A program made the translations under genes and the position numbers. A model generated the notes under the pieces. That model was given only the letters and a program-made list of their open reading frames with translations, made no database searches and was not told the origin of the DNA. Positions 5,832 through 30,245 of a DNA stretch of 64,000 bases are shown piece after piece (within the stretch, counting starts at the first letter, position 1; each line of letters starts with the position of its first letter). The stretch is from NCBI GenBank assembly GCA_963817525.1, contig CAWFOU010000001.1:768001-832000 (forward strand). The letters run 5' to 3'. The stretch comes from an uncultured archaeon (GTDB lineage Archaea; Thermoproteota; Nitrososphaeria; Nitrososphaerales; Gagatemarchaeaceae).

Positions 5832-5904
5832 AGCCCGTTCGTCTAGTGGTCAAGGATAGGGGCCTCTGGAGCCTCTGACCCAGGTTCGAATCCTGGACGG
5901 GCTA
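5832..5904 (+). tRNA. tRNA-Gln(CTG); anchor of the cassette array
   Basis: AGCCCGT acceptor, GGGGC-CTCTGGA-GCCTC anticodon arm, CCAGG-TTCGAAT-CCTGG T arm, ACGGGCT-A. Confidence 0.95.
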
Positions 5905-6051
5905 TCTCTCCAATTCCTGCTCTTTTTGCACTTTGTGGTCTGATTCAGGTCGCGCTTGCCCGAAGGAGTCCGCGCGGACCGTCGGTTTGTTGATTCCAGA
6001 ACATGTTACCACACACCTTAATTTCGACCATGCATTCCAGGAGAGGTTGCA

Positions 6052-7362
6052 ATGGATGTCGATTCCCAAAGAGGTATCGGCAAATCTGCCGGTCTTGCCG
6101 TAGCCGCCGCCCTTCTCGTTATCGCCGGGCTCATAGCTTTCGCAGGGACCACGAAAACTCCAGCAAGCATCTCTTCCAATCAATCGTCCCCCGCTTCGAG
6201 GGCCAGTCAATTCACGTTCTTCAATTCAACAGTCTCTCTGGACGGCCTACAACTTGGCGTGGCTCTGAATACGACGTCACTTCCGGCAGGCCAAGGTTTG
6301 TCAGCCGATGTGTATCTCACGAACACTCTGCCCAGGAACATCTCGCTCCCCGCGAATCTCACAGCCTTCGGGGGGGATTCGACCCTCGAGTCTTTGGGCC
6401 GTGGCTATCAGTGCGATGGGGCGGGGCTTCTGGGCGTACTCAATTTTGGAGTTTACCGGGGACACTATACCGCAGAGAATTTCTCACAGGAGCCCGCTCC
6501 TCTCTTGATGGAGGCTCCTGTTCCTGGCAGTTGTCCAAACCCGTACTACTACGTCCAATCGCAAACTCAGGGTTTTGAATTTGCGCCAAACAGCGACATG
6601 GCCACGCTTTCAGGGCAGAAGACGACTGAGATGCATCTCACTCTCCAAAGTATCAACTTCACAGCGGTTCCATACACGTTCTGCTGTGAGACGATTATTC
6701 AGAACGGATCGACAACGACTTCGCGAAGTGGAATGGACCTTGGAGGGTCATGGTCGCCCTCCGAGGGCGCTAGAGGTTACTGGACGATGCCCCCTAACGG
6801 CACCGCCATCCCTTCATTTGGAGGAAGCAACATACTTCAGACCGTTAATCAGGTCCACGACCTCTATCACGAGTTCGGCCCGGGTCTCTATACGATTGTG
6901 GCGGAGGACTTTTGGAACCAGACCGCGTTCGCGTATTTTGGGGTCCACCCCAACTCTTCCTCTTCGACAATCGCTTGCTTCGAAACAGGGTTCCCTTCAA
7001 CCATCTCCGTAAGGCTCGTTCAAGACGCAACGTTGCAGCCTGCACAAGGGGTTCATGTCTTCGCTTACGAATTGAACCCTTGCGGTGCGTCGAATCAGGT
7101 AGACCTTGGCGTCACGAACTCCACTGGGTATGCTCCTATTCAGCTGAACTGGAACGGAAAATACACCGTCGAAGTCGACTACAATTCCCAAACAATCTTT
7201 GGTTTCTCAGGTCAATCTTTCAATCTACCGACGCTTGACACCCTGAGCGTCCCGTCAGGGATTGTAACAGAACAGACCAACGGTTGCCTGCCAGATGCTT
7301 GTCTCCCATACACGACGACGACAACGGCTAACATCACCACTGCTCTACCGGGCGGTCCTTGA
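6052..7362 (+). CDS. membrane-anchored secreted protein (cassette 1)
   Basis: N-terminal TM segment, Ser/Thr/Asn-rich beta-type body with many N-x-S/T sequons. Confidence 0.75.
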   Translation: MDVDSQRGIGKSAGLAVAAALLVIAGLIAFAGTTKTPASISSNQSSPASRASQFTFFNSTVSLDGLQLGVALNTTSLPAGQGLSADVYLTNTLPRNISLPANLTAFGGDSTLESLGRGYQCDGAGLLGVLNFGVYRGHYTAENFSQEPAPLLMEAPVPGSCPNPYYYVQSQTQGFEFAPNSDMATLSGQKTTEMHLTLQSINFTAVPYTFCCETIIQNGSTTTSRSGMDLGGSWSPSEGARGYWTMPPNGTAIPSFGGSNILQTVNQVHDLYHEFGPGLYTIVAEDFWNQTAFAYFGVHPNSSSSTIACFETGFPSTISVRLVQDATLQPAQGVHVFAYELNPCGASNQVDLGVTNSTGYAPIQLNWNGKYTVEVDYNSQTIFGFSGQSFNLPTLDTLSVPSGIVTEQTNGCLPDACLPYTTTTTANITTALPGGP

Positions 7363-7368
7363 CTGGAT

Positions 7369-7396
7369 GGATTAGTACCTATTCGGGTGCGAACAA
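7369..7396 (+). repeat. orphan type-B site (11-6-11)
   Basis: GGATTAGTACC-TATTCG-GGTGCGAACAA, starting 7 bp after a stop codon; no tRNA 3' end follows. Confidence 0.6.
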
Positions 7397-7420
7397 CGTT
7401 CAGGCGAAGATACCACCAAT

Positions 7421-7475
7421 GAGTGTCAAATTCCACGTAAAAGCCCCTGAACAGGTGCAGCTCCTGGGCGGCCTA
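7421..7475 (+). repeat. junction J1, type A
   Basis: GAGTGTCAAATTCCACGTAAAAGCCCCTGAACAGGTGCAGCT-CCTGGGCGGCCTA (core has 2 mismatches). Confidence 0.85.
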
Positions 7476-7617
7476 TTTTCTGTTGGCGCTCTGGTGGTGC
7501 CGAATGGAGTTCTGCTCCGGAGTGGGCACTTCTCGAGTCTTCCCGGTCCGACTCTGCCAAATCGAGTAAGGAGACTCTAACGTTCGGTTTTCGGACGCCT
7601 ACTCAGCTGATGGGATC

Positions 7618-8040
7618 CTACGTCGCTAATGGATCGACAAACTTCATCTCACGACTTTTGAACCGCAAGCTCTGAAGGCTCAGCAGATCCTGATCGTGGG
7701 TCAGCATCGTTTCGATTCCGTTCCTGAGGTAGCAACCTACAATCAGAGCGTCTCTTCCCCCCAAGTTGAGCTTTGTTCCCAAGTCCAACGAAAAAAGCGA
7801 AACCGTCTTGGTGAGATTGAAGAAGACTGTCCGCCGGTCCTTGACGAGCGTACGAAGTTTCAATCGCCCGTCTGCAGGTGACATTCCTCTCTTGAATACC
7901 AGGGTATGATATGATTCATGTACCACGGTAGGGTTTAGCGCCCAAGCTTGGGTTGACAAGATGGAGTCTCTAGCTTTCACGTGCTCGTCGGTTGTTGGAT
8001 CCAAGGCGTGGACTAGGATGCTGGAATCTATGCCATTCAC
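7618..8040 (-). CDS. vapC: PIN-domain (VapC) toxin
   Basis: IDSSILV...E...GGRDALI...THDQD acidic PIN motifs. Confidence 0.85.
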   Translation of the reverse strand: MNGIDSSILVHALDPTTDEHVKARDSILSTQAWALNPTVVHESYHTLVFKRGMSPADGRLKLRTLVKDRRTVFFNLTKTVSLFSLDLGTKLNLGGRDALIVGCYLRNGIETMLTHDQDLLSLQSLRFKSREMKFVDPLAT

Positions 8041-8276
8041 TTAGCTCGCCAGATTTCTTTGATTTCATCTTCTTTGACCAGCTGCGGCTTCCTCGTTCTC
8101 TTAGGGTCCCAAGACATCGTCTCGCGGAGCGAATCCTCTGTTTCCTTTGCCTTTTTCACGGTGACAAAGCCCTTCTCCTTCTTGAACGTGACTACGCTGC
8201 CTTCCACTAGACCCAATTCATCGGCGATGTCCTTGGGTAGCACTACCCTTCTCTTGTCGTCCAGGATAGAGGTCAT
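8037..8276 (-). CDS. vapB: AbrB/MazE-fold antitoxin
   Basis: LDDKRRVVLPKDIADELGLVEG; overlaps the PIN start. Confidence 0.85.
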   Translation of the reverse strand: MTSILDDKRRVVLPKDIADELGLVEGSVVTFKKEKGFVTVKKAKETEDSLRETMSWDPKRTRKPQLVKEDEIKEIWRAK

Positions 8277-8299
8277 GTCCCACCACATCCGGTGGGACA
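8276..8299. promoter_or_regulatory. putative TA autoregulatory operator
   Basis: perfect inverted repeat TGTCCCACC-ACATCC-GGTGGGACA at the antitoxin start. Confidence 0.55.
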
Positions 8300-8496
8300 A
8301 ACTAATATGTGTTTAGGCGCTCCTGCTACCCGGCCAGAGCATCCACGACAGCCAGACCCTGGTCAAGGGTCCGATCAACGCCAACCATGAATACCCTCTC
8401 ACCATCTACGGCGCCCTCCCCCAGGAGGATTGATTTCTCCTATACAGTGATGATACAAATCTAGGCACCGAGTTGAAACTCAGCAGCACCTCAGAG

Positions 8497-8551
8497 GAGT
8501 GCAAATTTCCGCCTAATAGCCCCTAAACAGGTGCAGCCCCTGGATGGGCTA
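8497..8551 (+). repeat. junction J2, type A
   Basis: GAGTGCAAATTTCCGCCTAATAGCCCCTAAACAGGTGCAGCC-CCTGGATGGGCTA. Confidence 0.9.
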
Positions 8552-8798
8552 CCTATTTTGACCTCTATTGGTCAAAAGAGACAGCGTTGACGCTGTTACT
8601 AGGTAAAATGCCACAGATTCGGGTCATTTCACAACCAGAGCCACGAACTAGACGATTTCATCCTCACCGAGACAATGGATTCGAACCTTACTGAGGGATG
8701 AAGCCATCTCGAATCCGAAGAGGCCCGCCCCTGAACGCGTTTTCAAAGCGGATTCCGGGAAAGCTCTTGCCCACCCTATTCTTCCAAGTTGCAAGACT

Positions 8799-9134
8799 CT
8801 ACTTCGTAACACCTGGGTTCTTGGACATCAGCCATCGCTCGCCCCAGGACTTCATTTCGTATAGGGAATCGCTCAACTCGCGGCCCCTCTCAGTCAAGGA
8901 GTATTGGACTGAGATTGGCGATGTCTCCAAGACCCTCCTCTCGAGGATGTCTTGCTCTGCCAGGTGCTTGAGCGATCGTGAAAGCGTCTTGGAGCTCACG
9001 TTCCCCATCGCACGCCTGAGCTGGTTGTACTTCAAAGGCTCGTCATGAAGGTACCTGATAGCGATCATGTTCCATTGGTTGCCAAGCATCTTCATCGTCG
9101 CCACTGCAGGGCATATTGACGCATCGACGTGCAT
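8799..9134 (-). CDS. HxlR-family regulator, close paralog of 934..1308
   Basis: MHVDASICPAVATMKMLGNQWNMIAIRYLHD..., GAGGTGA SD before ATG. Confidence 0.9.
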   Translation of the reverse strand: MHVDASICPAVATMKMLGNQWNMIAIRYLHDEPLKYNQLRRAMGNVSSKTLSRSLKHLAEQDILERRVLETSPISVQYSLTERGRELSDSLYEMKSWGERWLMSKNPGVTK

Positions 9135-9302
9135 TGTCACCTCAGGTTTGTGTCGTGTTCTCCGTGTCGCCTTCTGTGTGATTTCGTTTAGAACCCTCCC
9201 TTTGTACTGCCTGGAGCCGGGGTCGCCACGCAGTGCCTGCATAACAATACGGTGCGGCTGAGGGGGCCGGCCGCCTTGCGAGCGATGGCTACCCAACCGG
9301 CA

Positions 9303-9935
9303 TCAACGTTCTGGCGCCGCATTTTCACGCCGCGGCAGGAGCATCAAGTCGGCCGCCTCTTCGGCATCCCTGAGAAGCGTCTTGCGCGGCGTGCCTATCA
9401 GCGCACCCATGGTAAGGCCACGAGCAAAATCAACGACCTGGCTTGCGCGGATGGCCACGGGAAAGTCGGACGGGATTTCGCCCGCGCTCATCGCGTCCCG
9501 GAAACGACCTTCCACTAGTCCTACGGCGTGAGCGGCCGCGTTCTGTAGGAACTGCCGGACCTCAGCATCGTTCACGAGCGGCGCGACGCACTCGAGAAGA
9601 CATCCGCGAGCTGATCCCTCCTGGGTCGCGGTTTCTACGGCGTTCCTCATGAAGGCGGCGAGCGAGTCGCGAAGAGTGCGCGGCGAGAGGAGTGCCTTCG
9701 CAGCGAGAGCCCCTTTCGTCTCTGCGTACGCCCTAAGGGCGCGCAAGAACAACGTCCGCTTGTCTCCGAAGACGGAATACAGGCTCGGCCGTCCCACGCC
9801 CATCCCTGCGACGAGGTCGTCGATCGTCACTCCGTCGTAGCCCTTCGACCAGAATACCTGGATCGCCTTTTCCAGCGCGAACCTCTCATCGAAGCTGCGC
9901 GGCCGTCCACGCGGCCTGGCGTCATTTTGCAACAT
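9303..9935 (-). CDS. TetR/AcrR-family regulator
   Basis: RGRPRSFD...FWSKGYDGVTIDDLVAGMGVGRPSLYSVFGDK. Confidence 0.9.
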   Translation of the reverse strand: MLQNDARPRGRPRSFDERFALEKAIQVFWSKGYDGVTIDDLVAGMGVGRPSLYSVFGDKRTLFLRALRAYAETKGALAAKALLSPRTLRDSLAAFMRNAVETATQEGSARGCLLECVAPLVNDAEVRQFLQNAAAHAVGLVEGRFRDAMSAGEIPSDFPVAIRASQVVDFARGLTMGALIGTPRKTLLRDAEEAADLMLLPRRENAAPER

Positions 9936-10208
9936 TTAGTTTAAATCTCCTGGAGAAGGCCATCGCACCGATATAAAAACCGAATAGTTCGTAATTAGCA
10001 AGCTTACCCTGGCCTCGCGGGGCCTCACGACTCGACCTTCACCGTTTACCACGGAGGCGCCCATGGAACATTCGATCGCACTCGTCACCGGTCGGCGCAA
10101 AACGCCGGAAGGCCTACAAGATTGCCGAGTTCGTTGAGGGTGACTCACCGGTGCCGTCAACGCACTTAGCTCATCAGATCAAGTGTCGACGCATTTCGCG
10201 TACTGCTT

Positions 10209-10967
10209 TCAGAGTTGCGACGCACCGCCATCGACCGGAAGTTCGGCACCGGTGGTGAAGGTCGCGTCGAATGCGAGGAAGAGAACGGCCTTCGCAATTT
10301 CCTCCGGCATCCCAAAGCGCTTCATCGGATTAGTAGCGATCGCCTGCTCCCTGACATGGGCGGCCACGCCTTTCTCGGGAAACACTTTGCCGATGATCGG
10401 CGTGTCGATGGGACCGGGCGTTACCGCATTGACGCGAATCTCCCGAGGCAGAAGCTCAGCGGCGAGCACGCGAGCAAATGAGCGCAGCGCGGCCTTGGAC
10501 GCTGCGTAGGTCGCTTGGTTGGGACTTCCCTTGACGTTTGCGATGGAGGTCGTGAGGACGACGGCGCCCCCCCGGTTTATCAGCGGCGCGAACTTCTGCA
10601 CCGCGAAAAACGGTCCTTTGGCGTTCAGATCGAACATCTCGTCGTACATGGCCTCGGTCGTGTTTTCGAGAGGGGCAAAGAGGGCAAATCCGGCGTTGGC
10701 GAAGAGCAGGTCGAAGGTGCCGAACTCGGCCTTCACCCGAGAGGCGAGGGCGTCGATGTCCTTCAACGAGCGCGCGTCGCTGGGAACCACGATGGCGTCC
10801 TTTCCAATCTCTTTCTGCGCCGATTCCAGGCCGGCGTGTGACCGCCCCGTCACCAGAACACGCGCACCCCCATCGAGGAGCATCTTCGCCGTGGCGAGCC
10901 CGCTGCCGCTGGTGCCGCCAGTGATCACGACTTTCTTTCCTTGGTACCGTTCCATGTGAGTTGTCAT
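10209..10967 (-). CDS. short-chain dehydrogenase/reductase
   Basis: TGGTSGSG, NAG, YAASK, VDGG motifs. Confidence 0.9.
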   Translation of the reverse strand: MTTHMERYQGKKVVITGGTSGSGLATAKMLLDGGARVLVTGRSHAGLESAQKEIGKDAIVVPSDARSLKDIDALASRVKAEFGTFDLLFANAGFALFAPLENTTEAMYDEMFDLNAKGPFFAVQKFAPLINRGGAVVLTTSIANVKGSPNQATYAASKAALRSFARVLAAELLPREIRVNAVTPGPIDTPIIGKVFPEKGVAAHVREQAIATNPMKRFGMPEEIAKAVLFLAFDATFTTGAELPVDGGASQL

Positions 10968-11104
10968 TGCGAGGTTAGGGTTGCTTTGCCTAATAATTAA
11001 CTGTTTAGTATGATAATCTCACGCGGAGGCCGCTGTCAAGGAATGTTTGAACTAGTTATTTCCATTTTGGAACTAGTTATTTCAAAATACCTTAGGACCC
11101 CGAG

Positions 11105-11121
11105 ACCTGCCGGGCCCGCCA
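11105..11121 (+). repeat. 3' end of an Arg/Lys-type tRNA (copy 1)
   Basis: ACCTGCCGGGCCCGCCA, identical at 20915-20931; last 12 nt equal the tRNA-Arg 3' end including CCA. Confidence 0.75.
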
Positions 11122-11130
11122 TCGGCCGAA

Positions 11131-11185
11131 GACTGCAAAATTCCACCTAAAAGCCCCTAAACAGGTGCAGCCCCTGGACGGGCTA
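11131..11185 (+). repeat. junction J3, type A
   Basis: GACTGCAAAATTCCACCTAAAAGCCCCTAAACAGGTGCAGCC-CCTGGACGGGCTA. Confidence 0.95.
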
Positions 11186-11289
11186 ACTTATCTCCTCAAT
11201 TCCGCCTCTATTCGCGATTCTGAGCATAAATGAGGCCACGCTATCCCCAAGAGCGCATATTGTTGCCCTGAGATGAAATGCTGGACATA

Positions 11290-11317
11290 GGTTCTTTGCG
11301 CCTCCGCCGGGGCATTT
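11290..11317 (+). repeat. 28-bp direct repeat, left copy
   Basis: GGTTCTTTGCGCCTCCGCCGGGGCATTT; 27/28 identical to 12138-12165. Confidence 0.85.
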
Positions 11318-11356
11318 CGCTCGCACGCGAGCGCTCAGACACAATGGATTTCGTAA

Positions 11357-12031
11357 TTATCCGCAGGTGTTGTAGACAGTGTTGATTTCGCCGAAGATCC
11401 AAGTCTCGTTAGAGATGAGCCAAGCACCCCCGACATCGACATATGAGGCGCCCAACCTTACGCTTTCTGCCCAAGGTTGAGTAAGATTCGCACCGCTAGA
11501 AAAAGCCGTGATGGTAGGACCGGATTCGCTTCCCTGCGCGTTGAACGTAGAATTCACGGTAGTTTCCCCCTTGACATTTGCAAAGACTCCAGGGCTAAAG
11601 TCCGTGAAGTTCATGGTGCCGGAGCGTGTCGAGTTGAACATCACATGATACAAGATGTTGATGTTGTAGATACCTGCGTATGCCCCGCTAAAGCCGTTAG
11701 GACTGCATACGAGATTGAGCGTCGCGTTGCTTTCATATTGGGCAACCAGCGCAGTCACATTTTGTGACTGTTCGCTCTGGAGGTGAGCGGCAAAGGCGCT
11801 CATGACCTCCTGGCTGGAGTTAATCGTCAACGTGGTCGTGCTCACCATGATTGTAGTCTGCGTGTTTGTTTGGTCAACCGTCGTAGTAGTAGTTCTGATT
11901 GAACCTGGACTGACGAGAGAGTAGGCGATTCCCGCGCCGATCAGCAGTCCGACGAACAGCAGGGCGACGGCAGTACGACCGACAGCGCGATGAGCGGTCT
12001 TGCGGGCCATCCGAACGTCGGTCCTGAGCAT
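11357..12031 (-). CDS. membrane-anchored secreted protein, possible NTF2/SnoaL-like domain
   Basis: TM segment, Thr-rich linker, QNVTALVAQYESNA...WLISNETW pattern. Confidence 0.65.
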   Translation of the reverse strand: MLRTDVRMARKTAHRAVGRTAVALLFVGLLIGAGIAYSLVSPGSIRTTTTTVDQTNTQTTIMVSTTTLTINSSQEVMSAFAAHLQSEQSQNVTALVAQYESNATLNLVCSPNGFSGAYAGIYNINILYHVMFNSTRSGTMNFTDFSPGVFANVKGETTVNSTFNAQGSESGPTITAFSSGANLTQPWAESVRLGASYVDVGGAWLISNETWIFGEINTVYNTCG

Positions 12032-12137
12032 ATGCCCGGCCCCATTAATACGGTTCGACAGAATGTTCGAGAGGCCCTGCCCGAGCTCCGCTACGCTTTG
12101 TCTAAAATGAAGTTGCAGGGCAATCGCCCATCATAAG

Positions 12138-12165
12138 GGTTCATTGCGCCTCCGCCGGGGCATTT
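12138..12165 (+). repeat. 28-bp direct repeat, right copy
   Basis: GGTTCATTGCGCCTCCGCCGGGGCATTT. Confidence 0.85.
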
Positions 12166-12195
12166 ACCCGTTTTCGCCCTGAACCCGACTATGGC

Positions 12196-12250
12196 AGCGC
12201 CAAATTCCCGCGTAAAAGCCCCTAATCAGGTGCAGCCCCTGGACGGGCTA
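12196..12250 (+). repeat. junction J4, type A
   Basis: AGCGCCAAATTCCCGCGTAAAAGCCCCTAATCAGGTGCAGCC-CCTGGACGGGCTA. Confidence 0.95.
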
Positions 12251-12477
12251 CCTATTTTAGCCTCTGTTTGCCTTATACGCCATGATTTACACTAATCCCT
12301 CGTAGAAAGCTTCAATTCGACTATATCACGATTCGATTTTCGGGACGACGCGTACCCAGCGCCGTCTTACGTGAGAGCCTACTCTCAATATTCATAAGAT
12401 TTCATAGTGCCGTGATTCTTAAAAATTGTTTCGTGAGCAACATCTCTATCCTTCGCCTTCTCTCTCCTACGACCAGC

Positions 12478-20699: not shown

Positions 20700-20738
20700 G
20701 GATTCGTACCTGATGAGGTGCAGCCCCTGGACGGGCTA
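20700..20738 (+). repeat. junction J8, type B
   Basis: GGATTCGTACC-TGATGA-GGTGCAGCCCC-TGGACGGGCTA. Confidence 0.92.
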
Positions 20739-20914: not shown

Positions 20915-20962
20915 ACCTGCCGGGCCCGCCACAAATATCTCCCCGGGCTGGATTCGAACTTC
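20915..20962 (+). repeat. Arg/Lys-type tRNA 3' end plus downstream inverted T-loop motif
   Basis: ACCTGCCGGGCCCGCCA-18 nt-GGATTCGAACTTC; same module lies behind the real tRNA-Arg. Confidence 0.8.
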
Positions 20963-21002
20963 CCGCATTGCAACCAGGTTGCGCAAGAGATATTCTTGAC
21001 GA

Positions 21003-22125: not shown

Positions 22126-22202
22126 TCGTCAGGGAACACCGTTGGAGCTGCCTTGGGAAGTATTGCATGAAGTAACGAGCTGTCCGCCCCGACGGGCAGA
22201 AT

Positions 22203-22241
22203 TGATTCGTACCTAATCAGATGCCGCCCCTGGACGGGCTA
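22203..22241 (+). repeat. junction J9, type B
   Basis: TGATTCGTACC-TAATCA-GATGCCGCCCC-TGGACGGGCTA. Confidence 0.9.
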
Positions 22242-22274
22242 ACTTGTTAGCTCAAAGCCTGTCGATTGGCTACC

Positions 22275-22646
22275 TTACATGACCCGGACTTTTGACTTTG
22301 GGAGAAACTTCAGGAAATCCTTGTCGCCAGTCCAGACCGTTGCGCCATACCTCTTGGCAGACGACGCAATAAGCGCGTCCAAGAGGTCTTCCTTGGTTGG
22401 CTTCATCCTCGCGGCTTCTTCTGCATCTGCCCTGATGAAAGGTGCGACCTCGACTCCCGCAATCTCGAGAAACTTGTCATAATTTGCTGAAGACATCTTG
22501 GCTGTGAAATATCCCCACAGGATTTGGAGGTGGCTTATCGCTGAGACATAGAGTTGTAAGCCTGTTCCCGACACCCGGAGCATCTCCGCGCGAGTGCTCT
22601 CCCTCTTCTCGTCGCTAAGAATCGAAGTGTCTAGAAAGACCTTCAA
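22275..22646 (-). CDS. vapC: PIN-domain (VapC) toxin
   Basis: VFLDTSIL...DALIA...WTGDKDF. Confidence 0.85.
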   Translation of the reverse strand: MKVFLDTSILSDEKRESTRAEMLRVSGTGLQLYVSAISHLQILWGYFTAKMSSANYDKFLEIAGVEVAPFIRADAEEAARMKPTKEDLLDALIASSAKRYGATVWTGDKDFLKFLPKSKVRVM

Positions 22647-22887
22647 TCAAACCAGACCTCGCTTGCCTGATGTGGCTCTTGATCTTGCTCATGTCCCCGG
22701 CTAGGTTGTCAAGCGCCGCCAGAACCATTTCCACATCAACGTCAGAACCAGAGACCTTCTTGATCATGATCCGTTCGTCTCGCGTCTCCTCGAACACCAC
22801 GCTGTCCCCTGGCTTGATCCCGGTCCTCTCGGCGATCCTCTTTGGAATTGTCACCTGCATCTTCCGCGTGACTTGGTACTGCCTCAT
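22615..22887 (-). CDS. vapB: AbrB/MazE-fold antitoxin
   Basis: VTRKMQVTIPKRIAERTGIKPGD. Confidence 0.88.
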   Translation of the reverse strand: MRQYQVTRKMQVTIPKRIAERTGIKPGDSVVFEETRDERIMIKKVSGSDVDVEMVLAALDNLAGDMSKIKSHIRQARSGLIEGLSRHFDS

Positions 22888-22990
22888 AGTACTACTTTCT
22901 TACTGTCAGCTGGTATAAAAAGACCCACCCCAGTCGTGGCATGAAAGCCAGGTTGCTCGGCATAGAGGGACTTGCGGCCCTCGGTCATGC

Positions 22991-23045
22991 GAGCACAAAT
23001 TTCCGGCTAAAAGCCCCTAAACAGGGTCAGCCCCTGGACGGGCTA
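22991..23045 (+). repeat. junction J10, type A
   Basis: GAGCACAAATTTCCGGCTAAAAGCCCCTAAACAGGGTCAGCC-CCTGGACGGGCTA. Confidence 0.93.
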
Positions 23046-23187
23046 TTCGCTCAATTGCGCCTCCGTTGACCGAACGCCGCAGTAATCTTACTATAATGTG
23101 CGTTTAGCGGTCACAACCTATCTGTCAAATCTGTGAGCAAAAGAAACCTTGGCAATGGCGCACATAATATTTATAAGCACGCATATT

Positions 23188-23201
23188 ATATGCATGCATA
23201 T
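23188..23201. promoter_or_regulatory. putative MarR operator
   Basis: perfect palindrome ATATGCATGCATAT over the VOC start, downstream of a TTTATAA box; degenerate copy at 23173-23186. Confidence 0.5.
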
Positions 23202-23586
23202 GCAATCCGAAATAAGGTACAAGTTGGGAATGATAACTCTGTTCTGTAGACACGTTGCCGAGACTAAGAGTTTCTACATCAATAAGCTGGGGCTGACTGA
23301 GATAAGAGAAATGACCTCACCTACTTTCGCCACTTTGATGACCAACGGGGGCAGCTTGATAGGTCTGCAAGATGTCAAGACGTCTCTGGGTGGACAAACG
23401 AGTACTCACGGTGAAGTGGAACTTGGACTAGAAGTCGAGGATGTCGACGCGACATACGAGAAGTGGAAGGAAAACAACTCTGAAGTGACCTCGCCTCCTG
23501 TCGATCTCCCCTTTGGGCGCACCTTTCAGGGAAAGGACCCTGAGGGACATCTGCTTCGGATATACAATACAAAGAAGCGTCAGTAG
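23200..23586 (+). CDS. VOC/glyoxalase family protein
   Basis: FYINKLGL...VEDVDATYE...PFGRTFQGKDPEGH. Confidence 0.85.
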   Translation: MQSEIRYKLGMITLFCRHVAETKSFYINKLGLTEIREMTSPTFATLMTNGGSLIGLQDVKTSLGGQTSTHGEVELGLEVEDVDATYEKWKENNSEVTSPPVDLPFGRTFQGKDPEGHLLRIYNTKKRQ

Positions 23587-24044
23587 TGGTGATAACAACG
23601 AAGCGAGAGGATACGAAATACTGGATTATCGTCGCATCCAGGGACCACGTTCAAAGAGGCGTGGAGGAAGGCATCTGTCAGACCTGTCACGGTAGGGGGG
23701 CACCATTGAGGAGGATGAGTGAGGGAGACTGGGTCGTATTCTATTCATCGAAGGAAAGATATGATGGTGTTGAGAAGTGCAGGAAATTCACGGCAATCGG
23801 GAAAGTTAAGAATGACCTTGTCTATCAGGTTCGAATGAACGAAGATTTCGCTCCTTTCCGTCGGAGTGTAGAGTTCTTTCCCTCCTCGGAGGTCCAGATT
23901 GAGCCGCTGATTCCATTTCTTTCTTTCATCGCGAACAAGAAGTCATGGGGATACGTATTCAGGTTCGGCCTGACCCAGATTCCCAGAAACGATTTCCTGG
24001 CGATTGCTTCGAGAATGCTTCCGGCCCTTCAGGAGGTAGTTTAG
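23586..24044 (+). CDS. EVE domain protein
   Basis: YWIIVASRDHV...CHGRGAPLRRMSEGDWVVFYS...WGYVFRFG. Confidence 0.88.
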   Translation: MVITTKREDTKYWIIVASRDHVQRGVEEGICQTCHGRGAPLRRMSEGDWVVFYSSKERYDGVEKCRKFTAIGKVKNDLVYQVRMNEDFAPFRRSVEFFPSSEVQIEPLIPFLSFIANKKSWGYVFRFGLTQIPRNDFLAIASRMLPALQEVV

Positions 24045-24048
24045 GGGA

Positions 24049-24546
24049 TTGGAGGGCAAACGCCCGGTCAAGTTTTCCAAGGCAAGGCCCGAGGAGAGCC
24101 CGGGTTACATGTTCTGGCAGACGAGCAATCTGTGGCAGCGGAAGATGGTCAAGGCGCTGAAGCCTACAGGCCTGACGCCTGTGCAGTTAGTTCTCCTGGC
24201 GGGGGTGGCCTGGCTCGAACGGGGATCCGAGCCAATAAGCCAAGTCAGGTTGGCCCGTCAGGCAAAGACCGACGTGATGATGACCTCTCAGGTACTCAAA
24301 AAACTGGAATCTAGGGGGCTGGTGAGCAAGAGACCAAGTGAATCAGATACCAGAGCTAACGCCATCACATTGACAGAAAAGGGGGCAGAGAAGGTCGCGA
24401 AAGCATTGATAATCGCGGAGAAAGTTGACTCGGACTTTTTCCAGCCTTTGGAAGGGAAGCATGACGAGTTCCTGACGGCGCTGGGAGCATTGACCAAAGC
24501 AAACGACCATGAGGGAACAAAAAATGACATTTCACCACAAGAATAG
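24049..24546 (+). CDS. MarR-family regulator
   Basis: SPGYMFWQTSNLWQR...DVMMTSQVL...DTRA...LTEKG. Confidence 0.88.
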   Translation: MEGKRPVKFSKARPEESPGYMFWQTSNLWQRKMVKALKPTGLTPVQLVLLAGVAWLERGSEPISQVRLARQAKTDVMMTSQVLKKLESRGLVSKRPSESDTRANAITLTEKGAEKVAKALIIAEKVDSDFFQPLEGKHDEFLTALGALTKANDHEGTKNDISPQE

Positions 24547-24642
24547 TTCTTGCAAGGAGAGCTCAAGTCGGCCGCCGCCTCGTGGGTTCGTCACCTGTCA
24601 TCGTGACTTCCGATGGCCCGCCACCTAAACATCACGATGTGT

Positions 24643-24681
24643 GGATTCGCACTTGAATAGGTGCGGCCCCTGGACGGGCTA
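24643..24681 (+). repeat. junction J11, type B
   Basis: GGATTCGCACT-TGAATA-GGTGCGGCCCC-TGGACGGGCTA; GGCCCGCCA lies 19 nt upstream. Confidence 0.92.
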
Positions 24682-24716
24682 TCTTCTTAATTCTAACTTG
24701 GCGTGGGGCGTGTCGC

Positions 24717-25193
24717 ATGGCCGCAGTTCGGAAGAAGAAGGCGTACGAGAAGTATGCTTGGGTAATCCCATTCGTGATGGGGCTATTTTTCATGCTCTCG
24801 ATGGCCGTGACCTTCCTTTCGCCAGTAATCCTCACCGGTGCCGAGGGCGCCGTCGAGAGCCTCACAGGACTGACGTTTTCCCAGTTGGCCGCGTCGAATC
24901 CAGGCGTCGCCAACTACATTTACCATCTCATCAGAATCCTCGCGATCTTCAGCTCAGGTCTCGGGGCCTTCTTCGCGGTCGTATCGGCGACGGCCTACAG
25001 GAGGGGAGAATTGTGGGCCTGGTACCTGACGTAGGTCGTCCCCGTGCTCTTCCTGCTCGACATTGCCAATGACTATGTCGCGTTTGGATATGTGGACGTT
25101 AGTTCGATGTTCATTGTCGCGATTTTGGTCCTTGGTCTCCTCCTACCCTACAGAAAGTTCTTCCCCATGAAGCAGCCTTCGGACGCTTCATAG
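24717..25193 (+). pseudogene. membrane protein with internal TAG at 25032-25034
   Basis: frame continues past TAG with two more hydrophobic segments (…GLLLPYRKFF) to a stop at 25193. Confidence 0.7.
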
Positions 25194-25232
25194 CCGGTAT
25201 CGCCTTCGCGGGCGCCTGCGCCCTGCCAAGAT

Positions 25233-26217
25233 CTAGGCACGGGGACTCTCGTGGCCAATCGTGATGACCACGTTTCCTGCCTTCTTCCCTGTGTCCACAT
25301 ACGCGTGAGCCTCTGCGATCCTTTCCAGAGGATACTCCCTATCGATCACTGACCTTACCTTTCCGGATTCGATGAGGTCTTTCAGGAAGGCCATGTCTTC
25401 GGGCTTGTACGAGGCCGCCCCGCCGATCACTCTCTTGCCTCCCGAACCTAATAGCTTTCGAAGAAGTTGCGACAATCCCGGGTTCCCCATGAGATAGAAT
25501 CCGTTCTCCTTTGTCGACCTCAAGCATGTGGAGAAGGGAGCCTTGCCGATGACGTCAAAGATGACATCGTATGTCTCGCCGTTCTCACCAAAGTCGTCCT
25601 TGGCATAGTCTATGACCTTGTCTGCGCCTATGGACCGGAGCATGTCCAGTTTTCCGTCCGAGTCGACCGCCGTCACTTCCGCCCCTGACGACTTGGCAAT
25701 CTGCACGGCAACGGTGCCTATGCTCCCGCCAGCCCCGATGATCAAGACCTTCTGTCCCATCTGGATTTTCGCCATTCTGAGGAAGTGCACCGCGTGCAGC
25801 CCCCCAAGGGGCATCGCCGCAGCTTCTTCGTAGGTCATGTTGGGAGGTTTCGTCGATATCAGTCCCTTTGCGGGCAGGCAGTCATATTCAGCATAGGCGC
25901 CCAGGTGGAAGCCGGTCAGAGCGAAGACCTGGTCGCCCGCTTTGAACCTGCTGACGTTTGTGCCCACAGATTCGACCTCTCCGGCCAACTCTTGCCCCAA
26001 GATTGCCCTTCTCGGTCCTCGCAACCCAAACCCTATTCGCGCTGCCAGCCACAACAAGATGGGCATCTTGAATCTTCGAATCTCGCAGTCCCCCCATAGT
26101 CACCGTTGTCGCGTGAACCCTGACCAGCACTTCATCGGCCTTGGGTCTGGGTGTCTCGACCTCTCTGAGCTGAAGGACCTCAGAAGGCCCATATCTCGTG
26201 CACACTACTGCTTTCAA
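25233..26217 (-). pseudogene. NAD(P)-dependent alcohol dehydrogenase / quinone reductase (MDR), frameshifted near 26092
   Basis: MKAVVCTRYGPSEVL N-terminus in one frame, GQELAGEV...GAGGSIG in another; shift in a 5-base homopolymer. Confidence 0.8.
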
Positions 26218-26338
26218 CTGATGAAACGCGATTGCCGTCCGCCCCTATATGGGGTCGGTCCTCTCCCGGCTGTCGCCCATGCCGAGCCTTTTGAGAGTCG
26301 TCTGCCTTTGTGGAATCTAGATTTTCCCTAGAGCAGAT

Positions 26339-26377
26339 GGATTCGCGCCTATTCAGGAGCAGCCCATGGACGAGCTA
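26339..26377 (+). repeat. junction J12, type B
   Basis: GGATTCGCGCC-TATTCA-GGAGCAGCCCA-TGGACGAGCTA. Confidence 0.85.
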
Positions 26378-26514
26378 TTTCCGCTCGCGCGGTAGGGACT
26401 GCTGGATAGAGTTCTCCTCCGGAGTGGGGACTTTTCGAGTATGCCAAGTCCGAGTGAGGAGATTCTGGCCCTAAGCATTCGGCCTTCAAAGTCCTACTCA
26501 GCTTGGGATTTTGT

Positions 26515-26582
26515 GTCGCTAACGCATCGACGAACTTCGTCTCACGATCTTTGAACCGCAACCCCTGGAGGCTTACCAGCAG
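26515..26582 (-). pseudogene. PIN toxin 3' remnant
   Basis: LVSLQGLRFKDRETKFVDALAT versus LLSLQSLRFKSREMKFVDPLAT of 7618..8040. Confidence 0.8.
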
Positions 26583-26596
26583 CCTACGAGCTCACT

Positions 26597-27580
26597 TTAC
26601 GATACTCCCGGAGTGACTGACGTTACAACCGAAGTTGCGGTTGTTACGGGCGTTGCAATGGCCGCTGCCGCGCCTGGTATCATGTCGAATGTCTCATATA
26701 CTGTGATCTCCCCTTCTCTCACTTCAATGATGGAACCCTCCAGCGGCCTCAAGGTGTCCGGGATGTGGAAGTGTAGCTCTCCGCCTAGCGGGAGTTGAAC
26801 CTCGTACTTAGGAGCCCCATTACCGTCGATGGTGAAGAGTCGCTCCCCTTTGCAGTACACGGTGCACAGCTGTAGCTGCCTGTTGCGTCCTTTGACAACG
26901 AGTGCAAACTCGCTGGCAGGATAGGGCGACACGACTGGCTCTCTTATGACTTCCAGCGTGATGTCTAGGTACAGCTTCATATCCGTGAGGACCATCACCT
27001 GATCGCCCGTCTTGACCTCGGCTCCCTCCTCGTCGTTGGGGTAGACGACGAAACGGCCCGCTCCCGTTACCCTCTCGATCCTTCCTTTGACGATCTTTGA
27101 CTCGGAGGTTATGACCGTCGTACCGTCTTTCTGAACCACCTCCATTATGGGCTGTTCCAGTTTGACTCCTTGCGCGGCGGCGGTCGGGCTCATCGCGACG
27201 AAGTCATCAATCTTCTTCAGTATCTTCTTCTCAACCTCCACGTTCCAAAGCATCTCCCCGACATCAAGGGGCAGGAATAGTTCAGAAATCAGCAGAGTCT
27301 CTACGGTGGCGACGCCTATGTTCTGGACCCATTTGCCTATCCCCACCCTTACCGAGAAGTTGTTCGGCTCCCCCTGGATCAGTATATCGAGAGCCCTTTC
27401 AGAAGTAATTACTTCCCTGAGGAAACCGCCCTTCTGTGCCTGTATCAACATGCCTCCCTGAGTGGCCCTCGGGGTTTGGAGCTTGAAACCATCATCCTGG
27501 AGATAACGGACTATGCGGTCCCTAAGTCCGACCAGATCGGTATTTCTTCCTTGATATCGGACAGTCTTGTCGGCTAACAT
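26597..27580 (-). CDS. hypothetical two-domain protein
   Basis: 327-aa ORF, no recognised motif. Confidence 0.7.
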   Translation of the reverse strand: MLADKTVRYQGRNTDLVGLRDRIVRYLQDDGFKLQTPRATQGGMLIQAQKGGFLREVITSERALDILIQGEPNNFSVRVGIGKWVQNIGVATVETLLISELFLPLDVGEMLWNVEVEKKILKKIDDFVAMSPTAAAQGVKLEQPIMEVVQKDGTTVITSESKIVKGRIERVTGAGRFVVYPNDEEGAEVKTGDQVMVLTDMKLYLDITLEVIREPVVSPYPASEFALVVKGRNRQLQLCTVYCKGERLFTIDGNGAPKYEVQLPLGGELHFHIPDTLRPLEGSIIEVREGEITVYETFDMIPGAAAAIATPVTTATSVVTSVTPGVS

Positions 27581-27662
27581 GCTCTCTGGCCACCATTGAT
27601 ATCAACGGCTAAGTGCATCTAGCAACAATCTTCTAGAATGAAAGGCCGAGCCCTCGAGAGTC

Positions 27663-28412
27663 TCATTTCCACTTTGTTAGTATCTCTTCCCTCTTGAAGG
27701 TGGCGATGCTCAGATAGAAGAGGAGCAGGTCTGCCACCAGGAAAATGCCTGACATGATGAGCAGATTGATCGTGGTCAATTGAATCACCCCGATCTCCGT
27801 CAGCACGTAGATGATGAAGAAGGGGAAGACCATCACTCCGGTTATCTGCTGCACGCTTCGAACGTCGTTGGCGCGTGCGGATAGGATGACGGTCAGCTCG
27901 ACTGAGAGAATGCTAGCGAGCGGCGCGAGGACGAGTAGGCTCACTCCGAAGCTCCAGTTTGGATAGTAGAGATAGCCTAGCCCGGCGTGAGTGACTAGGT
28001 CTATCAGGACCATGAAGACTACCGAGCTAGCCCAGATCGCGGCAATCGGCGGGATGAACGAAGCGATGCTCTTTCCCAGCAGAATCTCACCGTCCGTCAT
28101 GGGAGTTGCAAGCAGCGGTTCGAGGCTCTTCTGGATCTTCTCGCCGACTATACTGTACGAGGCAATTCCAGCCGGGAGACTCGCCGCTAAGATCACATAC
28201 CAAAACGAAAACGCGTTCAGAAACGGGGCAACGGATGCTGATATGGCCCCTGTGCCAGCGACGCTTTCGATCGCAACAAGTACCGCGGGAAATCCCAATG
28301 CAACACCGAATGGGGACACCATCGTAGCGTAGAGGACCCCCTTCCTCCTCTTGAAAATCTCAAAATCCTTCGACGCGACCGACCACGCGTTCTGCAGGTC
28401 CACTTCTCTCAC
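27663..28412 (-). CDS. ABC-2 type exporter permease, paralog of 17533..18282
   Basis: SYSIVGEK...LLATPMTDGEILLGK...FKREEILTKWK. Confidence 0.85.
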   Translation of the reverse strand: MREVDLQNAWSVASKDFEIFKRRKGVLYATMVSPFGVALGFPAVLVAIESVAGTGAISASVAPFLNAFSFWYVILAASLPAGIASYSIVGEKIQKSLEPLLATPMTDGEILLGKSIASFIPPIAAIWASSVVFMVLIDLVTHAGLGYLYYPNWSFGVSLLVLAPLASILSVELTVILSARANDVRSVQQITGVMVFPFFIIYVLTEIGVIQLTTINLLIMSGIFLVADLLLFYLSIATFKREEILTKWK

Positions 28413-29329
28413 TGGCTCCTGACCAGTTTCAGGTACACGTCCTCCAGGGTCGAACTCGCCTCCGTGACGAACTGGATACGGCCTCCCGCGGTTACGATTG
28501 CACTCATAATGTCAGGGTTCTCCTTCTCAGGATCACCCACCCCTATGACGAGCTTGTTGCCCTCGCCCACCTCGACGCCTCCGGTTGCGACCATCTTCGC
28601 TGCAGATATGATCACGTTGTTGACGCTCTCGAGCTTGACCACAATCTTCCGGCCGCTGGCCGACCGTTCGAGGTCTGCCGGGGTGCCCAGGGCCATCAGC
28701 TTGGTGTTCAGAATCGCGATCCTGTCGCAGATCCTCTGTGCCTCGTCGAGATTGTGCGTGTTGAGGAAGATGGTCTTCTTCTCCTTCTTCAGGTCGAGTA
28801 TGAAGTCCCTGACCGTCTTGGACGCTTCCGGGTCGAGGTTGGCAGTAGGCTCGTCCATGAACAAGACCTGCGGATCGTGAATGAGAGCGCGCGCTATGGC
28901 GAGCTTCTGCTTCATCCCCTTGGAGAAGGTTCCTGCCGCCAGATCCTTCTTATCCCATAAACCAAGCAGCTTGAGGAAGTATTCTATCCTCTCACTTCTC
29001 TTCGGTTCTTCGACCTTGTAGTATCTGCCGTAGAAATCCAAGTTCTTGTACGCGGTGAGTTCCTCGTACAGACCAACGTTGTCCGGAACCAGTCCTATGA
29101 CTCTCCTGATTTTTGGTTGATCTGAGCTTTTTCCGATGTCGTATTCCCCAATCTTGGCGGTACCGCTCGTCTTCGATATCAGACATGTCAGCATTCGTAC
29201 AGTGGTGGTCTTCCCGGCGCCATTGGGTCCGAGAAACCCGAAGACTTCCCCATCGTCGACGCGGAGGGTAAGATCGTCGACTGCAGTAAGGTCCCCGAAC
29301 TTCCTCGTAAGGTTCTCGGTCTCAATCAA
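28409..29329 (-). CDS. ABC exporter ATP-binding protein, paralog of 18279..19202
   Basis: GPNGAGKTT, FSKGMKQ, FMDEP; TTG start by alignment with the paralog. Confidence 0.92.
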   Translation of the reverse strand: MIETENLTRKFGDLTAVDDLTLRVDDGEVFGFLGPNGAGKTTTVRMLTCLISKTSGTAKIGEYDIGKSSDQPKIRRVIGLVPDNVGLYEELTAYKNLDFYGRYYKVEEPKRSERIEYFLKLLGLWDKKDLAAGTFSKGMKQKLAIARALIHDPQVLFMDEPTANLDPEASKTVRDFILDLKKEKKTIFLNTHNLDEAQRICDRIAILNTKLMALGTPADLERSASGRKIVVKLESVNNVIISAAKMVATGGVEVGEGNKLVIGVGDPEKENPDIMSAIVTAGGRIQFVTEASSTLEDVYLKLVRSQ

Positions 29330-29413
29330 CTTGAGTTGGTTTCGACTGTCCGCGAGATGTGATATATGAATTGAGGCACAGTATGGAAGCCTGACCACTC
29401 TAGTCGACCCCGC

Positions 29414-29452
29414 GGATTCGCACCTTGTTGGGTACCGACCCCGTCCGGCCTA
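29414..29452 (+). repeat. type-B site with a non-Gln tRNA-like 3' end
   Basis: GGATTCGCACC-TTGTTG-GGTACCGACCC-CGT-CCGGCCT-A. Confidence 0.65.
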
Positions 29453-29483
29453 TCGCTCCCTGTTCCCGATACAGCGGACCGCT

Positions 29484-29996
29484 TCAGCGCAGTCTCTTGA
29501 CCATGAATCGAAGTGCCACCTTGGCGCCTCCGACCCTCTCTACAGCCTTCCCGGACTCGGTGAATCCGGCCTTTCTGTAGAAACTGATTGCCCTCTCATT
29601 GGTCGCTTCCGTCTTCACGCGGACGGAATAGAACCCGCGCTTCCTCGCCGAGTCAAGGGCCTTGCGGAGGAGCCTCGATCCGACCCCCTTTCCGGTCGCA
29701 CCTTCCAGCACCGCTATGCCTGAGAGCTCCCCTTCCCTCGCTTCAACCTTTCTTATGCTGGAGAAGCCGATGATTCTTCGTTCCTCCTCAGCAACCATCA
29801 TCTGGATGGTGGGGGTGGCAAGTCTCTTTTTCAAGAACTCCTCGGAGGCGATTTCCCTGATTGCTCCATCCGTGGCCCCCGCGAACCCAAGCGCGCTGGC
29901 TCCCGCCTCCTTCCACGCCTCGACTAAGAAGACGGAAAGCTTCGAGACGTCGTTTGGTCTCGCTGGTCTTATCACAAGAGAGGTTGGTTTCTCCAT
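29484..29996 (-). CDS. GNAT acetyltransferase
   Basis: GKGVGSRLL acetyl-CoA motif, NERAISFYRKAGF. Confidence 0.85.
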   Translation of the reverse strand: MEKPTSLVIRPARPNDVSKLSVFLVEAWKEAGASALGFAGATDGAIREIASEEFLKKRLATPTIQMMVAEEERRIIGFSSIRKVEAREGELSGIAVLEGATGKGVGSRLLRKALDSARKRGFYSVRVKTEATNERAISFYRKAGFTESGKAVERVGGAKVALRFMVKRLR

Positions 29997-30148
29997 CCTC
30001 AGAGGGTCAGGCGGCGGTTTCGCAACCAAACTGGGCCATCATAAGCCTCTCCGGAATTAAGGATTCTGACGGTCGAAGGGCACAAGTCCAAGAAAACCAC
30101 CGGTATGCTGTCCGATTCGACGCATTCAGGGCTAACTTGGAGACCAAA

Positions 30149-30165
30149 CAGCCCCTGGACGGATA
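30149..30165 (+). repeat. junction J13, degenerate
   Basis: CAGCCCCTGGACGGATA. Confidence 0.7.
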
Positions 30166-30210
30166 ATTGACTTCCGCACCGACATGAGATTGGCTCCGGA
30201 ACGGGGTACC

Positions 30211-30245
30211 GGGACAAATCGAATTGAATCGTGACAATCCTGGAC
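30211..30245 (+). repeat. junction J14, type C, degenerate; apparent array end
   Basis: GGGACAAATCGAA-12 nt-AATCCTGGAC in the same register as J6. Confidence 0.65.

Follow-up and report, generated by a model that had tools for sequence, protein, structure and literature searches.

The window analysed here is a 64,000-nucleotide (nt) stretch (G000:C1:768001-832000) of a metagenome-assembled genome (MAG) from an uncultured soil archaeon of the Nitrososphaerota, and it contains, directly behind an intact tRNA-Gln(CUG) gene, a tandem array of small gene cassettes bounded by copies of the 3' end of that tRNA. The genome (G000) comprises 2.82 Mb in 15 contigs and is estimated to be 95% complete, with 8.75% contamination. 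An archaeal small-subunit rRNA was found in it (1476 bits), its GC content of 59-61% falls within the range given for Gagatemarchaeaceae in the available portions of the literature, and the window sequence is present in five public soil metagenome runs of two studies. The array is flanked on the left, before the tRNA-Gln(CUG) gene, by tRNA-Arg(CCG) and argS and on the right by housekeeping genes, and an Rfam scan returned nothing except two tRNAs. The spacer between argS and tRNA-Gln (window positions 5306-5831) measures about 526 bp in G000 and in its relative G022, and about 80 bp in G018.

The repeated element, hereafter the core, corresponds to the last 13 nt of the tRNA. At up to two mismatches it is matched 18 times in the window against an expectation of 2.12 +/- 1.55, and none of 100 shuffles reached 18. 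Fourteen of these matches lie on the + strand between 5892 and 26377, namely the tRNA itself, 12 junction copies and a two-mismatch match at 6237-6249 that lies in an open reading frame (ORF), lacks an arm (see below) and is probably due to chance. The junction cores end at 7475, 8551, 11185, 12250, 15771, 16561, 17303, 20738, 22241, 23045, 24681 and 26377. A first-pass annotation of the sequence had listed 14 tail copies on one strand; these 12 were confirmed at their ends, and the other two turned out to be degenerate, failing the two-mismatch limit. At 30165 the core carries a deletion, and at about 30245 only the first 7 nt of the core follow a weak class C-like arm (nhmmer E 0.48); both are decayed remnants. 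An additional degenerate class B site at 29413-29463 (nhmmer E 0.22), absent from that annotation, brings the same-strand tail copies to 12 clean and 3 decayed.

From the tRNA to about 29.46 kb, the junctions delimit 13 units of 742-3521 bp with 1-4 genes in either orientation. The annotated number of about 13 is thereby upheld, with a narrower range than the 0.7-3.8 kb and 1-5 genes given at first. The units are self-contained modules, several with a TetR, MarR or ArsR regulator of their own, and comprise three VapBC pairs, sets of regulator and enzyme, ABC transporters and a P-type ATPase. The features are as follows (window coordinates; wHTH, winged helix-turn-helix; aa, amino acids).

5832-5904, +: intact tRNA-Gln(CUG), called by ARAGORN and Rfam
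5892-5904, +: last 13 nt of tRNA-Gln(CUG), the repeated core
5905-7475, +: unit 1, ending in a class A arm and a two-mismatch core (7426-7475)
6052-7362, +: unit 1, 436-aa membrane-anchored secreted protein, rich in N-x-S/T, no family match
7476-8551, +: unit 2, class A junction 8502-8551
7618-8040, -, and 8037-8300, -: unit 2, VapC PIN protein and MazE/AbrB-type antitoxin
8552-11185, +: unit 3, class A junction 11136-11185; a copy of repeat R2 at 8705-8765 (-)
9303-9935, -, and 10209-10967, -: unit 3, TetR regulator and short-chain dehydrogenase (SDR)
11186-12250, +: unit 4, class A junction 12201-12250
11357-12031, -: unit 4, 224-aa membrane-anchored secreted protein, no family match
12251-15771, +: unit 5, P-type cation ATPase 12478-14988 (-); class A junction 15722-15771
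15772-16561, +: unit 6, esterase-like partial ORF 16030-16485 (+)
16520-16548 and 16549-16561: unit 6, class C junction, arm match and core
16562-17303, +: unit 7, VapB 16594-16842 (+) and VapC PIN protein 16823-17245 (+); class A junction 17254-17303
17304-20738, +: unit 8, class B junction 20689-20738
17533-18282, -, and 18279-19202, -: unit 8, ABC-2 permease and ABC ATPase
19469-20305, +, and 20298-20657, +: unit 8, 278-aa membrane protein and ArsR-type wHTH protein
20739-22241, +: unit 9, class B junction 22192-22241
21003-21704, -, and 21639-22004, +: unit 9, NAD-dependent epimerase/dehydratase and MarR regulator
22242-23045, +: unit 10, VapC PIN protein 22275-22646 (-) and MazE-type antitoxin 22615-22887 (-); class A junction 22996-23045
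23046-24681, +: unit 11, class B junction 24632-24681
23149-23586, 23586-24044 and 24049-24546, all +: unit 11, glyoxalase-family protein, EVE-domain protein and MarR regulator
24682-26377, +: unit 12, zinc-type alcohol dehydrogenase/quinone oxidoreductase 25233-26066 (-)
26328-26377: unit 12, class B junction with a two-mismatch core
26378-29463, +: unit 13, degenerate class B junction 29413-29463
26597-27580, 27663-28412 and 28409-29398, all -: unit 13, 327-aa protein without family match, ABC-2 permease and ABC ATPase
29464-30245, +: decayed end, GNAT acetyltransferase 29484-30029 (-), then two junction remnants (30165 and about 30245)
30246-36288: variable distal zone without clear junctions, with a 384-aa protein, a GNAT protein and several S/T-rich surface proteins

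The distal zone is partly common to the relatives G018 and G012, in differing order, and the conserved flank begins at about 34286/36289. Secreted or membrane-anchored proteins without family match that are rich in N-x-S/T or S/T occur both in the array (6052-7362, 11357-12031) and beyond it (32594-36192); the island therefore varies cell-surface proteins too.

Junction anatomy and the tie to tRNA-Gln

Upstream of each core lies one of three conserved arms of 30-45 nt, which bears out the annotated presence of conserved non-tRNA sequence before the copies. In the window, class A occurs at seven sites, class B at four and one decayed, and class C at one and one remnant. We aligned 53 class A and B junctions from G000, nine relatives and metagenome contigs, for which the mean column identity was 73%. 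Core base 1 and the 4 nt preceding it form an inverted repeat with core bases 8-12, from which a 6-bp spacer separates them; at junction 11185, for example, half-sites 11169-11173 and 11180-11184 surround spacer 11174-11179. These pairs are near-invariant, with 94.7% of cells complementary. This inverted repeat with its 6-bp spacer is the layout of a tyrosine-recombinase core site, of which tRNA-Gln itself has the right half-site only. A second inverted repeat of 6 bp with a 4-nt spacer lies further upstream (11153-11158 and 11163-11168 at the same junction). Its pairing amounts to 84%, and two of its pairs show compensatory changes (13 cells, compared with 6.3 +/- 1.8 in shuffles; 0/500); it could be a hairpin or a dimer-binding site.

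For the region 3' of the core we pooled 82 sites from G000, relatives and metagenome contigs, made up of 26 class A, 22 class B, 14 class C, 10 real tRNAs and 10 others, so that 62 of the 72 non-tRNA sites belong to one of the three classes. The pyrimidine-rich tail described in the first-pass annotation is real, but its conservation is partial: 15 of the 82 sites have one 7-mer immediately after the core, and 16 have a second about 14 nt past it.

The units themselves contain no recognisable recombinase. We searched 3613 ORFs from all array loci with eight integrases using phmmer and found no integrase or integrase fragment in any window unit or in 57 units pooled across array loci (median 1636 bp, range 442-5078 bp; delimited by cores at up to one mismatch, so that decayed junctions are undercounted). 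The lone weak match, in a unit of G014 (1575-2329), is a zinc-ribbon/RDD membrane protein by Pfam and was discarded. The Pfam matches of the window unit genes included no primase, helicase or polymerase domains, and no integrase gene stands beside the insertion site. Elsewhere in G000, PF00589 (Phage_integrase) is matched six times at E <= 0.001, on contigs C7, C8 and C9, and a laxer search added a seventh on C1, which is weak and lies 31 kb ahead of the window. Neither Y1 transposases nor serine recombinases were found in the genome.

The repeat is specific to tRNA-Gln. Among 34 tRNA genes, tRNA-Gln(CUG) is followed by 10 copies of its own tail and all others by 0-3. Genome-wide, the core is matched 18 times at up to one mismatch, 11 times in the window array, three times at C1:83.3-85.5 kb and four times at coding-like positions, where the match ends in a different base. 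Profiles of arms A, B and C without the core match two loci only in the whole 2.8-Mb genome, the arrays at tRNA-Gln(CUG) and tRNA-Gln(UUG); the annotated link between repeat and tRNA thus held when junction profiles were run over this genome and its relatives, and the repeat is tied to tRNA-Gln genes instead of being dispersed. The second array, listed on the next line, consists of copies of window units 7 and 6 in swapped order, the VapBC unit 7 (16562-17303) at 98.95% identity and unit 6 at 86%.

C1:83257-85471, outside the window: tRNA-Gln(UUG), then a 75-bp tRNA-tail remnant and two units

The tRNA-Gln(UUG) gene carries introns, and ARAGORN misses or miscalls it; its anticodon was read by us.

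Distribution and exchange among species of the genus

Sites recognised by a junction model (R1) are present in 10 of the 23 genus genomes (G000 12, G008 7, G014 7, G009 5, G018 4, G006 3, G012 3, G020 2, G022 2 and G013 1). An exact 23-mer pattern was present in 8 of the 22 other genus genomes and in none of 18 genomes from other genera of the order, and a degenerate pattern scan of 185,579 species genomes retrieved only five MAGs, all of this genus. Arrays were also found on 14 metagenome contigs, with up to 7 junctions in 12.8 kb. Gene order is not identical across relatives: the arrays differ in content and order among genus genomes and metagenome contigs. Between the same flanks (argS/tRNA on one side, window 34.3/36.3 kb onwards on the other) the variable stretch spans about 30 kb in G000, about 4 kb in G009 and about 5.6 kb in G018, and arrays with the same flanks have 2-4 junctions (G009 tRNA locus, G018, G022) compared with 12 in G000.

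Shared cassettes are 84-95% identical, compared with 74-80% for flanking core genes. The VapBC unit 7 is 95.5% identical in G018, 93.5% in G009, 90.0% in G008 and 84.5% in G014; argS is 79.6% identical to that of G000 in G018, 74.5% in G009 and 76.6% in G008, and the right flank 76.2% in G018 and 74.3% in G009. For the ABC unit 13, identity is 88-90% to G009, G022 and G012 and 84.5% to G014, and for the TetR-SDR block it is 93% to G009. The VapBC unit also changes rank (7th in G000, 2nd in G018, 3rd in G008). Its neighbour in G009 is the TetR-SDR unit, whose right end it directly adjoins, the two blocks overlapping by 17 nt at the core. Three exchange points could be resolved and all fall at repeats, so that these breakpoints of variation coincide with the junctions. 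The repeats also follow the tRNA of their host. The tRNA-Gln tail is variant at two positions in G007, G001, G015 and G010 and at one in G021, and in G007, G001, G010 and G021 (the last with six repeats) the variant of the resident tRNA reappears in the repeats behind it, as site-specific recombination with the resident tRNA predicts.

Two joints in assembled soil-metagenome contigs, 5904>16545 and 17286>20725, were considered as precise cassette loss and rejected, since they match the paralogous layout of the second array instead. Both have the junction letters of that array, 26-28 nt on the short side and about 2% differences, as the second array would give, and are therefore no evidence of excision.

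The array of G009 on contig C2 (195-210 kb), with seven core copies within about 15 kb at up to two mismatches, shares its contig with neither tRNA-Gln gene of that genome; it ends in a 24-nt tRNA-tail fragment. A frameshifted integrase-like gene is located 4.9 kb past its tRNA-proximal end, outside the units.

Candidate integrases and competing explanations

Two candidate helper integrases were found behind tRNA-Gln genes of relatives. In G012, the gene of P0002, a 418-aa ORF starting about 13 bp after tRNA-Gln(CUG) with argS upstream, takes the place of the array. Its Pfam match is weak (E 0.0045, below cut-off). Structural matches of its AlphaFold model (mean predicted local distance difference test score, pLDDT, 72) include XerA, lambda Int, Cre, XerH and Tn1549 Int, with a probability of 1.00 for XerA, lambda Int, Cre and Tn1549 Int; in all, 27 PDB chains reached E <= 0.001. 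Of 41 genomes sampled in the family, nine contain homologues. At 5 of 10 loci from other genomes, other genera among them, the gene or an N-terminal fragment stands directly behind tRNA-Gln(UUG) or its tail remnant; the remaining five loci are short, with no tRNA visible. The N-terminal fragments behind tRNA-Gln(UUG) are those of G046, G042 and G005. In an alignment of the family read by eye, the later H-x-x-R, H and Y motifs are kept, and the expected first catalytic arginine is replaced in all five members covering it. The P0002 sequence had no relative in viral contigs, and PDB sequence searches with P0002 and with the second candidate gave nothing useful.

The second candidate is a 451-aa integrase about 50 bp behind tRNA-Gln in the one-contig genome G007, which matches PHROG integrase at E 2.8e-6 and shares 26% identity with an integrase of G000. 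Its gene opens a 7.9-kb element, which terminates in an arm type of its own and a decayed core and is followed by a 3.5-kb integrase-less unit with the same arm and a perfect core. The same arm recurs at 97.7% on a 2.6-kb integrase-less unit adjoining the tRNA in G010. For this one arm type the tag is therefore common to an integrase-bearing element and integrase-less units. A long ORF behind the G010 tRNA is an arginine-rich frame without a blastp match to any integrase and was taken as spurious.

Altogether, we favour, with a probability of about 60%, the reading that the locus is a product of tandem accretion, in which tRNA-Gln-specific tyrosine integrases acting in trans move non-autonomous cassettes; the circular intermediates and the supply in trans are the parts of it that we infer. 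A cassette would be transiently circular and bear an attP-like site, composed of an arm (A, B or C), the 13-nt core and the partly conserved pyrimidine-rich stretch opposite. A tyrosine integrase supplied by an autonomous element targeting the same tRNA would recombine this site with the tRNA tail. Insertion would restore the tRNA and displace older cassettes outward, and the tRNA would therefore stay a reusable entry point. Recombination between any two junctions would delete, excise or reshuffle cassettes, and cassettes would spread among species of the genus. The first-pass annotation had likewise proposed cassette capture at the tRNA, and its proposal stands as far as the lack of integrases in the units, their attachment site (att)-like bounds, their varying content and order among species with the three resolved exchange points at junctions, and the tie of the repeat to tRNA-Gln are concerned.

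Several observations weigh against tandem accretion in trans. No integrase could be tied to arm classes A, B or C in G000, its relatives, or the viral and metagenome contigs searched; exact scans of viral contigs for the class A/B junction and for a longer tRNA tail were negative. With tblastn, no homologue of P0002 was detected in G000 (best E 2.1), the nearest G000 integrase to P0002 by blastp is distant (24% identical, E 1.4e-7), and none of the seven integrase genes of G000 (the six main ones and the weak one on C1) is flanked by tRNA-Gln-like repeats. The array-bearing genomes G008, G006 and G014 have no PF00589 match at all (88, 76 and 82% complete), and the P0002 family, as read by eye, has another residue at the place expected for the first catalytic arginine. 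Not all boundaries are junctions either: the TetR-SDR block common to G009 spans only 9226-11185 of unit 8552-11185, and the TetR-SDR pair is also found on C7 at 97.8% identity, without att sites and between copies of repeat R2. This C7 copy may indicate a path by which genes of the chromosome become part of cassettes, or a path in the opposite direction. The array of G012 is inverted together with its right flank and lies 341 kb from argS/tRNA-Gln (G012:C5:405-426 kb and 767 kb). The breakpoint is 369 bp inside a cassette; we therefore rejected an att-mediated inversion. By such rearrangement the arrays of G012 and of G009 contig C2 are detached from the full tRNA-Gln. Evidence of excision was absent from the assembled contigs of four soil-metagenome runs of one study, and the contamination estimate of the MAG has to be kept in mind, though both arrays share one 1.17-Mb contig.

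The main rival, which we consider unlikely, is that the units are decayed stumps of full elements that lost their own integrase and are now passively inherited and immobile. The available portions of the literature describe both archaeal integrase-bearing elements that re-use a site in tandem and the loss of the integrase after integration; the G007 element followed by an integrase-less unit with the same arm fits such a course, and so do the N-terminal fragments behind tRNA-Gln(UUG) and the decay of the distal junctions in the window. Stumps, however, would have to have shed every trace of an integrase in all window units and in the pooled set of 57. The units also form intact functional modules, and conserved sequence is found to either side of the core. 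Moreover, the 742-bp VapBC unit has the same ends in five genomes and in two arrays of one of them, at differing ranks, and is 84-99% identical where core genes are 74-80% identical. It is also conceivable, if quite improbable, that a resident, vertically inherited recombinase, either a divergent tyrosine recombinase or a member of an unrecognised family, is dedicated to capture at tRNA-Gln in the manner of IntI at attI. Arrays in 10 of 23 genus genomes and at both tRNA-Gln isoacceptor genes would agree with this, as would the seven tyrosine-recombinase-like genes elsewhere in G000 and the failure to find a helper with arms A-C in the genomes and contigs searched; against it, the array has no linked recombinase gene between argS/tRNA-Arg and the housekeeping genes, three array-bearing genomes are without a PF00589 match, and integrase content is patchy across the genus (0-8 matches per genome).

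That the repeats act as RNA, as tRNA-like minihelix processing signals, or as single-strand hairpins of the HUH/IS200 or integron type, we regard as highly improbable. The arm and core can be drawn as a minihelix mimicking the acceptor and T-arm with 83.6% of cells paired, and the hairpin upstream of the core shows some covariation. The covariation of the minihelix is no better than in shuffles, though (its score was matched by 196/500 and its percentage paired by 174/500), and the structure was rejected. Every repeat lies on the strand of the tRNA, yet genes occupy both strands; the sites are sequence-conserved, unlike attC, and there is neither a Y1 transposase in the genome nor an Rfam match other than the tRNAs.

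Returning to accretion of cassettes moved in trans, it is tempting to speculate, although the odds seem to lean against so broad a view, that the arrays constitute a genus-wide cassette-exchange platform, analogous to an integron and built from different parts: the tails of both tRNA-Gln isoacceptors as entry points, three standardised arms tagging regulator-equipped modules, a recombinase located elsewhere (helper or resident) that would insert, excise and shuffle these modules, and a common cassette pool.

Relation to known systems

Cis-mobilisable elements (CIMEs), found in Firmicutes together with integrative conjugative and integrative mobilisable elements (ICEs and IMEs), are att-flanked, lack recombination genes, and are in tandem with and dependent on an integrase-bearing element. 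They are bacterial and few per site, usually one. The units described here resemble them in being att-flanked without recombination genes, and the arm type of G007 and G010 pairs an integrase-bearing element with integrase-less units. They differ in that up to 13 miniature units of 0.4-5 kb with three standardised arms are stacked, in an archaeon, and no helper in the same genome was found for the G000 array. Integrative mobile elements exploiting Xer (IMEX) also lack their own recombinase, use host Xer and form tandem arrays at chromosomal dif. They share with our array the piling up of recombinase-less elements at one chromosomal site; the site here is the 3' end of tRNA-Gln and not dif, and no Xer-type host enzyme is implicated.

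With integrons the array has in common small cassettes tagged at one end, one reusable insertion site, toxin-antitoxin cassettes and species-specific cassette content. However, no IntI lies beside it, the PF00589 matches being on C7, C8 and C9, and its sites, which include a 6-bp inverted repeat, show sequence conservation and have 13 nt in common with the tRNA, whereas attC is defined by structure. Its units hold 1-4 genes in both orientations with their own regulators, unlike integron cassettes, which are mostly single promoterless ORFs in one orientation. As for tRNA-targeting integrative elements in general, direct repeats of the tRNA 3' end on the tRNA's strand and an intact tRNA are shared features, but none of the 13 window units has an integrase of its own. 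The array works like an integron or a CIME stack, and lacks the adjacent IntI and the single-ORF cassettes of integrons as well as the integrase that autonomous integrative elements encode themselves.

For the systems that follow, our comparison covers portions of five sources (PMC6563490, PMC8371274, PMC10640624, 10.1101/2020.12.28.424599 and 10.1101/2022.02.06.479319), to which the statements on them are limited. The tycheposon islands of Prochlorococcus are anchored at tRNAs and built by repeated integration, with partial tRNA copies between units and older units pushed outward, and our locus is likewise a tRNA-anchored hypervariable island built by repeated integration. Tycheposons, in contrast, carry their own integrase and often replication genes, whereas the window units have no integrase and, among their Pfam matches, no primase, helicase or polymerase domain, and the integrase-less material in those islands is described as degraded remnants, not as standardised cassettes with conserved arms. 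Archaeal elements with tRNA-targeting tyrosine integrases have att cores of 8-13 bp and re-use their site in tandem, and the array agrees with them in tRNA targeting, a short att core and tandem re-use. The cases described are integrase-bearing proviruses, casposons and conjugative or cryptic elements of several kb or more, and integrase-less mini-cassette arrays are not mentioned among them in these portions. The text covered of the thaumarchaeal element survey does not mention 'tRNA-Gln', and that of the archaeal-integron preprint deals with attC/IntI systems, with 'tRNA' occurring 0 times. No description of integrase-less cassette arrays at an archaeal tRNA was found within this coverage; the supplementary element tables of PMC6563490 could hold tandem cases.

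On this coverage, the class of mechanism is ordinary, namely tyrosine-recombinase integration at a tRNA tail that is re-used in tandem. The product is the unusual part: long arrays of miniature, integrase-less, regulator-equipped cassettes with standardised arms that are shared across species. The view of the first-pass annotation that no equivalent has been described was too strong, given the resemblance to CIMEs, IMEX, tycheposon remnants and, within the same coverage, tandem site re-use in archaea. Should the cassettes move in trans, they would represent a second route to integron-like gene sharing, in archaea and without IntI/attC. This would explain how small adaptive modules (metal and drug efflux, redox enzymes with their regulators, toxin-antitoxin pairs) are exchanged between species of slow-growing soil Thaumarchaeota without visible plasmids or proviruses. 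The 13-nt core, the arm of about 45 nt and the candidate integrases would be compact parts for a genetic tool in a phylum without one, and such arrays would go wholly unnoticed in surveys that take an integrase as the mark of an integrated element.

Some cassette genes have counterparts in the ordinary chromosome. The ABC-2 cassettes at 17533-19202 and 27663-29398 are paralogues of each other (73-78% identical), and further paralogues lie at C7:173256-174927 and, just upstream of the window, at C1:761521-762777. The unit of epimerase and MarR regulator resembles C7:156519-157969 (75-81%). Repeat R2, which may be a MITE, a terminator or another att site and for which no link to the tRNA-Gln system was found, is about 50 nt long with a GC-rich 8-bp hairpin and occurs in eight copies at E < 1e-6, five on C7 (152632, 155847, 159898, 984330 and 986250) and three on C1 (1053942, 1151244 and the window copy at 8705-8765 on the - strand). 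The TetR-SDR pair on C7 is enclosed by two of these copies, and unit 3 contains one.

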